This document shows positions 18,201 through 26,514 of a stretch of 64,000 nucleotides of DNA, piece after piece. Below the pieces are notes generated by a model, which saw only the letters and a program-made list of their open reading frames with translations, was not told where the DNA came from and searched no databases. Every line of letters starts with the position of its first letter. Within the stretch, counting starts at the first letter, position 1. The translations under genes were made by a program, and so were the position numbers. Source of the DNA: a virus; the IMG/VR virus record IMGVR_UViG_3300045988_094874, positions 231 to 64,230 of that record; one strand, written 5' to 3'.

Positions 18201-19273
18201 TTACAAAGAAACGCAAGATTGATAGGTTTAGGTGGTTGCTAAAAGAGCTAGGAGTATCCTGTGAGCCTAAAATACAAGGTAAGTTAAAGGTAAGTTTCTT
18301 TACACTAAGTGACTTTAAATTACTAAACCTTGTAAAGAGATACTGTACCGAGGATAAAACTCTTCTTGAGCCTTCTCTTACTGAGCTAAACCCTCTTGTG
18401 TACCTTGAGGAAGCAGGTCATTGGGACGGTCATATAAATAAGTTTGGTCTAATACTAGTATCCTCAACAAATAAGGAAACTTTAGATAAAATGCAGATAA
18501 TGGCGATACAATCAGGTGTCCGCGCAAGACTGGCTCTAAGAGAGGAAGCTCATGATAATGTAAGTAATACTTGGGAGTTGTCATATAATCTTGCTAAAAA
18601 GCCTCTGAGTAGGTTTGAAAGTAGGGATATTGACACACGAACTCACCACAAGACTAATTACAATGTCTACTGTGTAACCGTTCCTGAACATAATATTGTT
18701 ATACGCCATAATGGAAAAGTATCAATACAAGGAAACTGTAACTTCGGCTTTTTATATGGTATGCAAGCAAAATCGTTCGTGAATTACGCAAAAACCTATG
18801 GATTGAATTTATCACTCAAGGAAGCTGAGGAGTTCCGAAGTAAGTTCTTTGAAGCCTATCCGACTTTACTGGTATGGCACAGAAGGAACATTGACTTTGC
18901 TAGTAATAAAGGATATGTTGAAGCTCCGTCTGGCAGGAAACGTTTCTTGAGAGATATTTGGTCTGATGATTGGGCTAAGAAGTCTTCTGCTGAAAGACAG
19001 TCACTTAACTCAGCTGTACAAGGCTTTGCTAGTGACTGTTGTATCTCAGCTCTAGCGGATATAGTTTTCTCAGATGAGCTAGACCATTCAAGAGCAAGAG
19101 TATTAGGCTCTGTGCATGACGCTATATTAGTAGAGGCTAAGGAAGACTATGCAGAAGAAGCCTCTCAGATAGTAAAGAACCACATGGAGAACCCTTCCTT
19201 GTTTAAGCTACATAAGCTCTGTGTTCCAATGGTGGCTGATGTAGAAATCGGCAAGGGCTGGGGTATTCACTAA
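15227..19273 (+). CDS. family-A (Pol I-like) DNA polymerase with a 3'-5' exonuclease domain, interrupted by two inteins
   Basis: Exo I LDIETTGLD. Motif A (C)DLSQAELR split after KIIE. Motif B RTQAKS|CNFGFLYG split. Motif C VHDAIL. Extein length after intein removal is about 715 aa. Confidence 0.85.
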   Translation: MKKRDLMVLAKRLSSVELFSLDIETTGLDRYRDKIVSVQISYDFNGKEYDHFIWWEQYTKEEWQAFLKAIAKLNMVTHNGKFDILFLYVHTGVFMELYMDTQVLAHVSGEVELGLKPLVVKYFGDDYDVSKEIKVSGKRDSLTTLKGFITKYFTGTELVMEQTTKENAEAFLSGLKTKAQKNACELIDNEDGTFDVTRKWVHKDRTAMNKLAQQVYDELEGGILISGMSVEATDRLCKAFESLDSTIILETLKDVTQELVEANNKKLVVYGKKDTRYTLKLVPIFKKIIKKYKMIKVYKHEMRAYKAYSIIEKQGIYIDPNRHKVSEQLRAEYTEYLEELNEVAEINWNSTQQVAKVLFGKKGAPVIVDGKEVGKSLGLKPVKKSASGNPSTDDETLVELSAVSEVAKNLREYKRLTKLDTFIKSWDEIAVDGQIHPSFNITARTGRTTCSNPNLQQVPQNSNVRGIIYARPGYKIIECFSGDTEVLTEKGWQRFDSLDKGIKLAQYDCESEEISFEQPLRYIHQENRPTFHYEDRNTSVFATANHNVLTRYTNRVTRKHPFKETNFSRANQFINAGFYTTNYKYSDKYTRFLAMFISDGYMDNYGNISFGFRKQRKIDRCKHVLEELGISFKLNQYTRKGNAKDTMFRIGKVMTQFVNEYSESYKVLSTKTAFELNPAVYLEEAQYWDGTPIVKGKSVRFVSTQKKTLEVMQLMGVFCGIKMVIHRDNHRDKDCHKYAYYVNYKPKGDRFTCMNEQGVDFSNPTYQDVYCITMPLGTCVIRHKGKVSIQSQCDLSQAELRVAADFSGDKNMIHAYQSGSDLHSKTTEMMFGNLEGLDHDELKRKRTQAKSCFSGDTEILTDKGFVPFNMYDGVTRVAQYNIESQEISYTEPLDFRMIPNQKICVFENENTSLKLTPNHECIIQVQNTRKYMKKIPFEELAGHGQSKYAWVNAGYYNYDKNKFIDDKLTRFVACFVADGSYSSSKNAIRFGFTKKRKIDRFRWLLKELGVSCEPKIQGKLKVSFFTLSDFKLLNLVKRYCTEDKTLLEPSLTELNPLVYLEEAGHWDGHINKFGLILVSSTNKETLDKMQIMAIQSGVRARLALREEAHDNVSNTWELSYNLAKKPLSRFESRDIDTRTHHKTNYNVYCVTVPEHNIVIRHNGKVSIQGNCNFGFLYGMQAKSFVNYAKTYGLNLSLKEAEEFRSKFFEAYPTLLVWHRRNIDFASNKGYVEAPSGRKRFLRDIWSDDWAKKSSAERQSLNSAVQGFASDCCISALADIVFSDELDHSRARVLGSVHDAILVEAKEDYAEEASQIVKNHMENPSLFKLHKLCVPMVADVEIGKGWGIH
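16661..17602 (+). mobile_element. intein 1 in DNA polymerase motif A, with a LAGLIDADG homing-endonuclease domain
   Basis: Starts CFSGDTEVL (Hint block A). LAGLIDADG-like LAMFISDGYMDN. Ends ...HKGKVSIQSQ followed by +1 Cys; the terminal residue is Gln rather than Asn. Confidence 0.7.
17780..18736 (+). mobile_element. intein 2 in DNA polymerase motif B, with a LAGLIDADG homing-endonuclease domain
   Basis: Starts CFSGDTEIL. LAGLIDADG-like VACFVADGSYSS. Ends ...HNGKVSIQGN followed by +1 Cys. Paralogous to intein 1. Confidence 0.75.
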
Positions 19274-24146: not shown

Positions 24147-24185
24147 CAAAAAGGTATTGACTTTAATAAATCCCTGTGATACACT
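24146..24185 (+). promoter_or_regulatory. second copy of the conserved-motif promoter (TTGACT-17 nt-TGaTACACT)
   Basis: GCAAAAAGGTATTGACTTTA is identical to the copy at 9466. -35 at 24157-24162 and an extended -10 at 24177-24185. Confidence 0.55.
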
Positions 24186-24216
24186 ATATTAGAACTAAAC
24201 AAAAGGAGATATTGCA

Positions 24217-26061
24217 ATGAAACTAAAATCATTGTCTACGGTACGCCTGCATCAAATGACCGTGTTGTTCGGAAAATCTGGTTCAGGCAAGGCAGAATAT
24301 GTAGAAAACAAAATCTACACCCCTAGTGGACCTAAACGCTTTGGTGACTTAAAAGTCGGTGATTATGTATTTGACCGATTTGGTAAGCCTACAAAAGTAG
24401 TTGGAACATTCCCACAAGGAGAGATTGACGCATATGAAGTAACTCTAGCAGATGGACGTACAGTAATCTGTAATGATGAGCACATCTGGACCACAGTAAC
24501 CTCACGAAATAGTCTTAAGGATTATACATTACGTGAAATTATTGACACAGGTGTTACTATCAAAAAGGGAGGGATTACTCGTAACCGATTTTATATTCCT
24601 ACCCATAGCTACGTCCAATTCAAGGAGCAAGAAGTTAAGGTACACCCTTATCTTGTAGGAACTTTTATTGCAAATGGAGCTTTACGCTCTAAACCTCTCA
24701 CACTATGCTCCGATGACATTTTTGTGGTAGAAAAAGTTGCTAAGATTTTAGGGGCTACTTACAAGAAGAACTCAGATAAGAATTTTAGCTATACTTTTCG
24801 AAAAGAAGGACACATTATCAAAACGGAAGAGGTATTCACAGAGTTGCTTGGTAAGTATTCTCATGAGAAGTTTATTCCTAAGGAATACCTATTTAATAGT
24901 GTAGAAGTTCGTAGAGAGCTCCTCCAAGGACTAATGGATAATGATGGTTCTATAACACCTAAGCATTCTGGAGCACACCCTTCATATTACACAGTAAGCC
25001 CTAGGCTTGCAGATGATGTAGTATTTCTTGTAAGAAGTCTTGGGTATGAGACTTATGTATATGTAGATGAACGTGAAGGGAAACGTACAGGATATGACAT
25101 TGGACTTAGAGTACCTCCACGTGAACGTAAATCACTATTCACATTGCCTAGGAAGAAAGAACGTTCTCTAGCTGTTGAGGGCAACTGCTTAAGACGACGC
25201 TATGAAATGGTTGGTATTGCTAAAGTTACAAAGCTTAATAAGAAGTTACCTATGATGTGTATTAAGGTAGATAATCCTGAAAGCTTGTACTTGTCTAATG
25301 AGTTTGTAGTAACTCACAATACTTCCGTAATCAACTCACTTCCGGGTAAAACTCTCATCATTGACACTGACCGTGGGTTAGCTTCTGTAAGCCCCACTGA
25401 TAATGTTGATGTAGCTGAGTGTTACAACTGGGAAGACATTCTTGAAGCATTTGCAATCGCTAAGACAGGCGATTATGAAAGCATTGCTGTTGACCACTTT
25501 ACAAATGTCCAAGAAATGTGCTACAAACATATTATGGAAAAATACAAAGTGGATAAAATGCAAATCCAGCATTATGGAGAAGCTTCTCCATTGCTCAAAG
25601 GACTTGTTGACCAGCTGGTCGGTTTTAGCTATGATGGTAAGAACGTCCTTGTACTTGCACAGGAAATGAGTATTAACGTTGAGGAAGATGAGGGAGAAGA
25701 TGTACCACGGGTAATCTGCCCTAACGTATCCCCAGCTGTTCGCTCTTACTTGCAAGCCTCTGCACGGATTGTAGCCCATACACAGAAGGAAAACAAGAAG
25801 ACCTTTGAAAATGGCAAGAAATCCATTGAGGAAGTTTATATTGCTCAGGTAGCAGGTAACCCTATCTTGACTACTAAAGTTACACGCAAGCCGGGAATTG
25901 AAATTCCTAACAAGATTAAGAACCCTACGTGGGCTAAGCTCACTAAACTTATCACAGGAGAAACCGCTAAGAAGGCTAAGCCTGCTAAAGAGGAAGAAGC
26001 CCCTGTGACAGAAGAAAAACCAAAACGCAAACGTGCTACTAAGAAATCAGAAGAAAAATAA
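24217..26061 (+). CDS. Sak4-like (AAA_24) recombination ATPase interrupted by an intein in the Walker A P-loop
   Basis: The extein reconstitutes LFGKSGSGK|TSV (GKSGSGKT), then LIIDTDRGL (Walker B) and IAVDHFT. K/E-rich C-terminal tail. Confidence 0.65.
   Translation: MKLKSLSTVRLHQMTVLFGKSGSGKAEYVENKIYTPSGPKRFGDLKVGDYVFDRFGKPTKVVGTFPQGEIDAYEVTLADGRTVICNDEHIWTTVTSRNSLKDYTLREIIDTGVTIKKGGITRNRFYIPTHSYVQFKEQEVKVHPYLVGTFIANGALRSKPLTLCSDDIFVVEKVAKILGATYKKNSDKNFSYTFRKEGHIIKTEEVFTELLGKYSHEKFIPKEYLFNSVEVRRELLQGLMDNDGSITPKHSGAHPSYYTVSPRLADDVVFLVRSLGYETYVYVDEREGKRTGYDIGLRVPPRERKSLFTLPRKKERSLAVEGNCLRRRYEMVGIAKVTKLNKKLPMMCIKVDNPESLYLSNEFVVTHNTSVINSLPGKTLIIDTDRGLASVSPTDNVDVAECYNWEDILEAFAIAKTGDYESIAVDHFTNVQEMCYKHIMEKYKVDKMQIQHYGEASPLLKGLVDQLVGFSYDGKNVLVLAQEMSINVEEDEGEDVPRVICPNVSPAVRSYLQASARIVAHTQKENKKTFENGKKSIEEVYIAQVAGNPILTTKVTRKPGIEIPNKIKNPTWAKLTKLITGETAKKAKPAKEEEAPVTEEKPKRKRATKKSEEK
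24292..25320 (+). mobile_element. intein (343 aa) with a LAGLIDADG endonuclease domain inside the ATPase P-loop; N-terminal residue is Ala
   Basis: Starts AEYVENKIY directly after GKSGSGK. Internal LVGTFIANGALR and LLQGLMDNDGSI LAGLIDADG motifs. Ends VVTHN followed by +1 Thr. Confidence 0.6.
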
Positions 26062-26079
26062 TAAATAGGAGATATAATC

Positions 26080-26514
26080 ATGTCAAAAATCAAATTTACA
26101 GCAGAAAAGAACGAAGGACTTTCCTTCACCTATACAGAAGGAACTTTCACAGTAGTTATCCAAGCCTTTGAATGGGTAGAGCCATCAGGTACAGGCAAGA
26201 AGCCTTACTATAAGGTAACATTCCGTGGAGACTTTGGTACTGATACTAATACTTATGGCTTCCGTATGTTTGATACAGCATTTGGTCGCTCAGACCTCTA
26301 TGACCTTGCAGAGGCTGTAGGAATTGACCCTAAAGGTGAAATGGACACAGAGGACTTTATTGACCGCTATGTGAACATTACCCTTGAAGAAGGTGAGCCT
26401 TACAATGACAAGCCTCAATGGGACGTTGTAGCTATTGAACCTGCTGGTGATGTCGAAGATGATGAAGACGAATACGCAGATGATGATGACGAAGATGATG
26501 AGTGGGACGACTAA
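26080..26514 (+). CDS. acidic-tailed small protein (candidate SSB-like protein or DNA mimic)
   Basis: Strong RBS. C-terminus DVEDDEDEYADDDDEDDEWDD. Confidence 0.5.
   Translation: MSKIKFTAEKNEGLSFTYTEGTFTVVIQAFEWVEPSGTGKKPYYKVTFRGDFGTDTNTYGFRMFDTAFGRSDLYDLAEAVGIDPKGEMDTEDFIDRYVNITLEEGEPYNDKPQWDVVAIEPAGDVEDDEDEYADDDDEDDEWDD

Follow-up and report, generated by a model that had tools for sequence, protein, structure and literature searches.

Evidence for a probably active class 3 LAGLIDADG intein between the Walker A lysine and threonine of a Sak4-like ATPase from an uncultured siphophage

The DNA considered here, hereafter the window, is a stretch of 64,000 nucleotides (nt) corresponding to positions 231 to 64,230 of the IMG/VR virus record IMGVR_UViG_3300045988_094874. 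An open reading frame (ORF) of 614 amino acids (aa) plus stop, located at 24217..26061, codes for a Sak4-like ATPase with an in-frame intein, as indicated by the ORF call, Pfam and PHROGs. The intein (343 aa, 1029 nt) occupies positions 24292..25320; the features of this gene and of its upstream region are all on the + strand. It is very likely that this element is a genuine, probably active class 3 intein, that is, of the WCT type named after a Trp-Cys-Thr triplet, that it carries a LAGLIDADG endonuclease, and that it is lodged in a Walker A motif, after the Lys and before the Thr, in an uncultured siphophage of about 64 kb, probably with a Streptococcus host. The assignment as a class 3 splicing domain plus a LAGLIDADG endonuclease is based on an insertion-deletion difference with an empty allele, on matches to inteins in the PDB and on an AlphaFold2 (AF2) model.

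The limits of the element are given by a closely related phage that is devoid of it. Using the spliced sequence as a query, an intein-less orthologue of 270 aa (P0121), 93% identical to the exteins, was found. Its Walker A motif reads GKSGSGKTSVINSLPGK and its junction context, ...VLFGKSGSGKTSVINSLPGK..., is the same as that predicted for the spliced product. The corresponding contig (L001, 62,970 bp) is colinear with the window, with 86-91% nucleotide identity in blastn; the alignment stops at 24290 and restarts at 25326, the difference being the 1029-nt element. Around the site, this empty allele reads GGGTCAGGCAAA|ACAAGCGTGATT, with GGCAAA|ACAAGC across the insertion point. Since it lacks exactly 24292..25320, the N-terminal boundary of the intein is Lys|Ala. 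Residue 1 is the non-nucleophilic Ala26 of the protein (codon GCA, 24292..24294). At the other end, the intein terminates with ...LSNEFVVTHN, its last residue being Asn368 (25318-25320), and the C-extein resumes with TSVINSLPGK. The C-extein's initial residue, Thr+1 (Thr369, ACT, 25321..25323), is the Walker A threonine and the predicted acceptor nucleophile. An earlier, sequence-only reading of this DNA had proposed a 343-aa element at these coordinates, splitting GKSGSGK|T directly before the conserved Thr and starting with Ala rather than with Ser or Cys. The ORF translation and the empty allele bear out the coordinates to the base, and the same junction is seen in the intein-less protein and its contig. 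A start at a nearby Ser or Cys had been named in advance as the refuting observation; boundaries at S21 or S23 are contradicted by the empty allele and would destroy the GxxxxGKT motif.

Filled and empty alleles are found side by side among close relatives. P0001 has the intein and P0121 does not, both being about 93-94% identical to the window protein, and a second pair, at about 84% identity, is formed by P0008 (intein) and P0122 (none). This patchy distribution is as expected of a mobile element.

As judged from its sequence, the host protein is a Sak4-like/AAA_24 ATPase with a RecA core. The precursor begins with MKLKSLSTVRLHQMTVLFGKSGSGK, and its N-extein (aa 1-25, 24217..24291), delimited by the ORF translation and the empty-allele alignment, ends in ...VLFGKSGSGK, that is, in the Walker A GKSGSGK with its Lys-1. 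The C-extein (aa 369-614 plus stop, 25321..26061) comprises the remaining AAA_24 core detected by Pfam and a Lys/Glu-rich tail. When the intein is cut out in silico, the Pfam AAA_24 score rises from 42.7 to 66 bits (cut-off 27) and the match reaches back across the Walker A motif; the spliced product matches phrog_124, 'Sak4-like ssDNA annealing protein', with E=8e-40 (PHROGs). In silico splicing yields a 271-aa ATPase with a contiguous Walker A motif, GKSGSGKT (GxxxxGK[ST]), the same as in the intein-less orthologue. In the C-extein, SIAVD (25480..25494) is Walker-B-like and presumably represents the Walker B motif, and D426 and H427 are invariant in the alignment of orthologues. From the family name, a function in single-stranded DNA (ssDNA) annealing or recombination may be inferred.

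A phmmer search against all PDB chains returned inteins as the top matches of the element, with E values from 8e-13 to 5e-9, well outside what chance would give. The gp41-1 intein carrying a grafted WCT triplet (6RIZ, with substitutions C1A, F65W and D107C; E=8e-13, 51.3 bits) scored better than wild-type gp41-1 (6QAZ; E=2e-10, 43.0 bits). The class 3 intein Msm DnaBi1 of Mycobacterium smegmatis (6BS8; E=5e-10) and MchDnaB1 of M. chimaera (6RIX/6RIY) were also matched, and PI-SceI matched the central part. The AF2 model of the intein, calculated with 61 aligned relatives, has a predicted local distance difference test (pLDDT) score of 94.6 and a predicted template modelling (pTM) score of 0.92. 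A Foldseek search with this model retrieved PI-SceI, TliVMA and PI-PfuI at template modelling (TM) scores of about 0.6-0.7, followed by class 3 mini-inteins and I-DmoI. Pfam reported neither Hint nor Intein_splicing for this intein, and the splicing domain rests on the PDB matches and the model. As modelled, the element is a complete intein, in which a HINT splicing domain (blocks A, B, F and G) is split by a double-motif LAGLIDADG domain.

Class 3 inteins are defined by a non-nucleophilic residue 1, by the co-varying WCT triplet (B:12, F:4, G:5) and by Thr or Ser at +1 (PMC2807308). In these inteins, Cys F:4 is absolutely required as the initiating nucleophile, and most members reside in ATPase P-loops (PMC2807308; also PMC5050341, PMC6195587). 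The block B His is kept and the B:7 Thr is usually absent (PMC6195587). Class 2 inteins (KlbA-type) also have Ala1, but they have no WCT triplet, an Asp at F:4 and Cys+1 (PMC2807308). In the window intein, alignment to 6BS8 and 6RIZ locates the block B core C-N-D-E-H-I-W at 24469..24489, with Cys60 at B:6, Asn61 at B:7, His64 at B:10 and Trp66 at B:12; in HMMER alignments, Trp66 of NDEHIW faces the HQW of 6BS8 (AQHQW) and the HLW of 6RIZ. Cys323 (Cys348 of the protein, 25258..25260), the predicted initiating nucleophile and the C of the triplet, occupies F:4 and aligns with Cys118 of Msm DnaBi1 (VPVRCVEVDNPEHLYL in 6BS8, LPMMCIKVDNPESLYL in the window, each followed by ...THN). Block G (25312..25320) contributes Thr341 at G:5, the T of the triplet, followed by the penultimate His342 and the cyclising Asn343. 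The full class 3 signature is therefore present: Ala1, His B:10, Trp B:12, Cys F:4, Thr G:5-His-Asn and Thr+1. With WCT, Cys F:4 and Thr+1, the intein belongs to class 3, and class 2 is ruled out; a residue 1 other than Cys, Ser or Thr rules out class 1 as well. Of the 'class 2/3-like' chemistry suggested by the sequence-only reading, the class 3 part is retained (WCT, Thr+1) and the class 2 part is abandoned (no Asp F:4, no Cys+1). The WCT triplet which that reading had proposed to look for is there (Trp B:12, Cys F:4, Thr G:5), and Pfam, PHROGs and the alignments agree with its description of an intein with LAGLIDADG motifs, ending in THN|T, in the P-loop of a Sak4-like (AAA_24) ATPase.

The same pattern is found throughout a large family. 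The full precursor retrieves 614 proteins, the first 36-37 of which are Sak4-like hosts having the same intein at the same site (48-94% identity). The remaining retrieved inteins are 35-46% identical and are carried by other P-loop NTPases, almost all at GK|T. The hosts checked with Pfam belong to DNA_pol3_delta2, PIF1/AAA_30, AAA, PhoH, T2SSE, DnaB_C, RecA, ResIII, UvrD and AAA_2, so that, on the basis of these assignments, related inteins occupy GK|T in no fewer than ten different families of P-loop NTPases. Columns of the family were derived from an alignment of 119 inteins. Positions -2 and -1 are Gly and Lys, each in 117/119. Residue 1 is variable (89 Ala, 13 Ser, 6 Gly, 5 Cys, 3 Pro, 2 Glu and 1 Leu). 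His B:10, Cys F:4 and His-Asn at G:6-G:7 are found in 119/119 and Thr G:5 in 118/119; B:12 is Trp in 114 inteins and Phe in 5; B:7 is Thr in 5 only; +1 is Thr in 117 and Ser in 2. Variation at residue 1 combined with an internal Cys that never changes is what characterizes class 3. The 18 inteins starting with Ser or Cys likewise all keep Cys F:4 and Thr G:5, and 17 of them keep Trp B:12. An exhaustive phmmer search of 1.84 billion representatives gave 2,784 clusters matching the element at E<=1e-30; in an independent sample of 135 of the best representatives, WCT was found in 125 and Cys F:4 in 134, which is the same pattern. Related inteins were also detected by tblastn in 846 cultured phage records. 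In a neighbour-joining (NJ) tree, which has no support values and gives a hint only, Sak4-hosted inteins form one clade adjoining AAA+ inteins, and those hosted by DnaB, UvrD, PhoH and AAA+ proteins are each spread over several separate clades. Two relatives have their intein one step earlier in the P-loop, namely the AAA+ protein P0117 (GPPG|...THN|TGK) and P0051 (...GFLPG|...THN|TAEE); both inteins begin with Pro and keep Thr+1. Judging from these sequences, this position is a second target within the P-loop motif.

The homing endonuclease domain covers approximately residues 104-305 of the intein (24601..25206), as estimated from Pfam, the secondary structure of the model, fold matches and substitution ratios. 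Inside the element, Pfam detects LAGLIDADG_3 (E=6e-9, 36 bits for a cut-off of 22.5) and Hom_end, and the domain resembles I-DmoI and PI-SceI in fold, with two LAGLIDADG helices and an alpha-beta-beta-alpha-beta-beta-alpha type of arrangement. Motif 1 (block C, HPYLVGTFIANGAL, 24643..24684) contains FIANG, with an Asn at the position usually held by the catalytic Asp or Glu, and motif 2 (block E, RRELLQGLMDNDGSI, 24910..24954) contains DNDG, in which the catalytic Asp is kept. Among the 119 relatives, the acid position of motif 1 is Asn in 60 and Asp in 58, Asn being found in several host proteins, and that of motif 2 is Asp in 114. The occurrence of Asn in 60/119 relatives across several hosts suggests a maintained variant rather than decay. 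From its sequence, such an endonuclease may be a nickase-like or otherwise altered enzyme that has been maintained.

Selection was estimated by the Nei-Gojobori method against three diverged filled alleles. The ratio of nonsynonymous to synonymous substitution rates (dN/dS) is 0.03-0.05 for the N- and C-terminal splicing regions, 0.12-0.16 for the endonuclease domain and 0.09-0.12 for the exteins, the ratios being approximate because the synonymous rates (dS) are about 0.4-1.2, with values near 1. Purifying selection on both halves of the element argues against a relic and for a functional intein. In the same pairs, dS is higher in the intein (0.87-1.14) than in the adjacent C-extein (25321..26058; 0.36-0.76). 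These values suggest that the intein and its host gene had partly separate histories, possibly through recombination or re-invasion.

By analogy with characterized class 3 inteins, the following mechanism can be proposed. In the 614-aa precursor, the split P-loop would not permit productive ATP binding, so the precursor should be inactive as an ATPase. Ala1 would be unable to perform the usual N-S acyl shift. Cys323 (C348 of the protein, F:4), positioned by His64 (B:10), Trp66 (B:12) and Thr341 (G:5), would attack the Lys25-Ala26 peptide bond to form a thioester-branched intermediate. The hydroxyl group of Thr+1 (T369) would then take over the N-extein, with the block G branched ester as the product, after which cyclisation of Asn343 (protein Asn368) would free the 343-aa intein. 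Finally, an O-N shift would restore GKSGSGKT in a 271-aa ATPase of the same design as the intein-less orthologues. The freed protein is presumed to be a homing endonuclease that would cut empty alleles, for instance that of L001, during co-infection; repair after the cut would copy the intein into the empty allele. Homing of this kind would explain the presence or absence of the intein among phages whose flanks are 86-91% identical.

It should be noted that several points weigh against an active class 3 intein capable of homing. Splicing and the thioester-branched intermediate are inferred from work on MP-Be DnaB and Msm DnaBi1 (PMC2807308, PMC6195587). At B:7, the window intein has Asn, where Msm DnaBi1 has Asp and MP-Be DnaB has Ser. 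Moreover, grafting WCT on a class 1 scaffold was insufficient for productive splicing (PMC7664689), so that the triplet is a signature and no proof of activity. The Asn of motif 1 could mean that the endonuclease is impaired. When five filled alleles and one empty allele were compared over the 36 nt flanking the site on either side, no clear co-conversion or immunity footprint was seen; filled alleles differ from one another in these flanks as much as they differ from the empty one, and the sole consistent filled/empty difference, AAG versus AAA for Lys-1, is anecdotal. The approximate nature of the dN/dS ratios, with dS values near 1, has to be added to this list.

The start with Ala1, also found in Mja KlbA (PMC2807308), might suggest a class 2 intein, in which the N-terminal junction is attacked by the +1 residue itself, without any block F nucleophile. 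This is hardly plausible: W66, C323, T341 and Thr+1 are not what defines class 2, and Cys F:4 is the residue that never varies in the 119 relatives. An ordinary class 1 intein, with a Walker A motif rebuilt differently, could be imagined from Ser21 and Ser23, just upstream within GKSGSGK, and from the 18/119 relatives having Ser or Cys at residue 1. Yet these relatives still hold the WCT residues as counted above, the Walker A of the intein-less orthologue and the exact DNA indel at 24292..25320 fix the boundary, and any other boundary cuts GxxxxGKT, which makes such an intein next to impossible. One may also wonder whether the element is a decayed or splicing-dead relic that keeps the ATPase disrupted for good, or a pseudogene of the same kind as the Arthrobacter Arth_1007 intein. 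A pseudogene of a class 3-like intein, no longer active, is indeed on record (PMC3196547) and motif 1 has no acidic residue, but every catalytic position is intact, the frame is open over 614 codons, the splicing blocks have a dN/dS of 0.03-0.05 and the exteins one of about 0.1, at dS of about 0.4-1.2, and the same intein is retained in at least 36 diverged Sak4-like hosts. A relic is thus very improbable.

The case of an intein that splices normally with a dead endonuclease, and that is inherited vertically or by general recombination without homing, is less easily set aside. Asn is found in motif 1 (FIANG) of all listed Sak4-hosted copies but P0036 (GDG), and the flanks examined bear no homing signature. 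Against this, the dN/dS ratios of the endonuclease domain point to purifying selection, half of a highly diverse family retains the Asn variant, in several host proteins, presence and absence alternate among near-identical phages, and the excess of intein dS over C-extein dS hints at separate histories. On balance we doubt that the endonuclease is dead, while holding this to be a real possibility.

More than a mobile parasite at the DNA level, the class 3 intein might also control the phage recombinase after translation, as a switch operated by a reversible Cys323-Cys60 disulfide. Redox control by a Cys118-Cys48 disulfide was shown for Msm DnaBi1 (PMC6195587), and by analogy Cys60 (B:6, 24469..24471) is a possible disulfide partner of Cys323. 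It lies four residues before the catalytic His and is found in 76/119 relatives and in gp41-1. In such a scheme, the disulfide would prevent the Sak4-like ATPase from being active in an oxidative environment. Along similar lines, the family may record repeated jumps between unrelated P-loop ATPases by way of the shared GK|T coding sequence. We regard these extensions as rather unlikely.

Upstream of the gene, direct reading of the sequence shows a Shine-Dalgarno motif, AAGGAG (24203..24208), 8 nt before the ATG. A consensus scan identified a promoter-like TTGACT-17-TACACT with a TG extension (24157..24185); since eight promoter-like sites were observed in the region for 6.8 expected, this site is only suggestive. 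The downstream ORF (26080..26514, 144 aa) has a strongly acidic tail, ...DDDDEDDEWDD, which recalls the C-termini of single-stranded DNA-binding (SSB) proteins, and its position is kept in all relatives. As a candidate SSB partner of Sak4, this ORF has no match in Pfam and a weak match only to a PHROG of unknown function.

A genome of about 64 kb seems to be covered almost completely by the window, relatives being on contigs of 62-64 kb; the exact 614-aa precursor is also present on a metagenome contig of 64,205 bp. A megablast search of the gene against 50,697 phage records gave no match. The nearest named relative is 'Siphoviridae sp. ctK0l2' (P0003), at 90%. The gene belongs to a replication and recombination module, with PolA, a PD-(D/E)XK nuclease and a dUTPase upstream. 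From sequence comparisons, the host is likely Streptococcus-like; the phage lysin shares about 60% identity with lysins from phages of Streptococcus agalactiae and S. pyogenes. The window also encodes a surface-type protein (13480..14973) that combines a signal-like N-terminus, the domains Big_8 and Collagen_bind and a cell-wall anchor of the LPXTG type (LPKTG), and ORFs of the tail region of L001 have GbpC and BspA_v domains as well. Such an LPXTG surface-type protein is uncommon as phage cargo and would point to a streptococcal host.

Two further putative inteins are located in the PolA ORF (15227..19273), where Pfam finds LAGLIDADG_3. That of motif A (314 aa, 16661..17602; ...YKIIE|CFSGDTEVL...KVSIQSQ|CDLSQAELR) is class-1-like, with Cys1 and Cys+1, and ends with Ser-Gln instead of His-Asn; it is missing in L001, where the site reads IIE|ADYSQLELR. 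That of motif B (319 aa, 17780..18736; ...RTQAKS|CFSGDTEILT...KVSIQGN|CNFGFLYGM) has a Gly-Asn C-terminus without a penultimate His. The L001 PolA is 1034 aa long and shows a single alignment gap, so that L001 would also carry the motif B intein. Taken at sequence level, the phage of the window carries three inteins.

As for the significance of the class 3 intein, the Sak4-like/AAA_24 recombination ATPase joins the list of class 3 intein host proteins. The GK|T family, in at least ten P-loop NTPase families, is a data set for the idea of intein host switching, and the window and its relatives supply natural filled/empty allele pairs for homing tests. The intein itself, full-length, of class 3, with Ala1 and Thr+1, and from a phage of low GC (guanine plus cytosine) content, is also a potential splicing tool. 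Annotation errors are flagged as well, intein-bearing Sak4-like proteins having been called 'terminase large subunit' (phrog_19299 and phage 949 ORF58). The value is mainly in annotation and engineering, and less conceptual. No paper describing an intein in Sak4/AAA_24 proteins was found in our literature search, and a 2025 survey of actinophages listed class 3 inteins in only four types of host protein; the same survey proposes that inteins may change hosts by way of nucleotide-binding sites (10.1101/2025.01.02.630785).

Among cultured phages, the best match by tblastn is ORF58 of Lactococcus phage 949 (YP_004306218.1; NC_015263.1 28101..30194; L006 1399..3492), the exteins of which match AAA_24 (E=3e-28) and the Sak4-like phrog_124 (E=2e-50). 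As in the window, an Ala1 intein occupies this GK|T position; it likewise has Cys F:4 and ends in THN|T. It differs in being only about 36% identical, in having Ile at B:12 and in keeping the Asp of motif 1 (IGDG). ORF58 is annotated as 'terminase large subunit' despite its Sak4-like/AAA_24 exteins, and no description of it as an intein was found in the literature searched. By its sequence, phrog_19299 ('terminase large subunit', 702 positions) probably corresponds to the same intein plus Sak4-like architecture, mislabelled.

Among characterized inteins, a close system is the class 3 prototype, MP-Be DnaB of mycobacteriophage Bethlehem, compared here from its published description (PMC2807308). 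It is likewise phage-encoded and of similar size (341 aa versus 343 aa), has a LAGLIDADG endonuclease between blocks B and F, and its W67, C320 and T339 correspond to W66, C323 and T341. Both have a non-nucleophilic residue 1, His B:10, a His-Asn end and Thr+1. They differ by Pro1, Gln-1 and Ser B:7 in MP-Be DnaB, where the window intein has Ala1, Lys-1 and Asn, and by the host, a DnaB-type helicase rather than a Sak4-like ATPase. Msm DnaBi1, which has Ala1, uses Cys118 and sits in the P-loop of DnaB (PMC6195587), and MchDnaB1, whose N-extein was modelled as SVGK, share with the window intein Ala1, the insertion after the P-loop GK (PMC6195587, PMC7664689), the WCT triplet in register, a nearly identical block F and the fold. 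Unlike it, they are mini-inteins without an endonuclease, with Ser+1 and a DxxH block B (Thr+1 and NxxH here), and they reside in bacterial chromosomal DnaB genes; the window intein has no established counterpart of Cys48, the redox partner in DnaBi1. The class 1, cyanophage-like gp41-1 (6QAZ) and its WCT graft (6RIZ) are the top-scoring PDB sequences over blocks A and B and share the THN C-terminus and Cys B:6. Nevertheless, gp41-1 has Cys1, Phe B:12 and Asp F:4, is naturally split and has no endonuclease, and its graft does not splice productively (PMC7664689). Finally, the class 2 intein Mja KlbA resembles the window intein by Ala1 and by the absence of a first acyl shift, and differs from it by having no WCT, Asp F:4, Cys+1 and an archaeal host protein without a P-loop (PMC2807308).

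Phage P-loops have been recognized as sites of class 3 inteins since 2010, and in mycobacteriophage terminases an insertion separating the invariant Lys from the Thr was described as the 'classic' P-loop type (PMC5050341). Ala1 class 3 inteins at P-loop GK|T/S are already well described in the Msm, Mle and Mch DnaB proteins and in mycobacteriophage terminases. The sequence-only reading of the window thus stands in each of its parts and is corrected solely as to novelty: the intein of the Sak4-like ATPase is an ordinary member of a large known family, to which it adds a host protein and a data set rather than a new principle.

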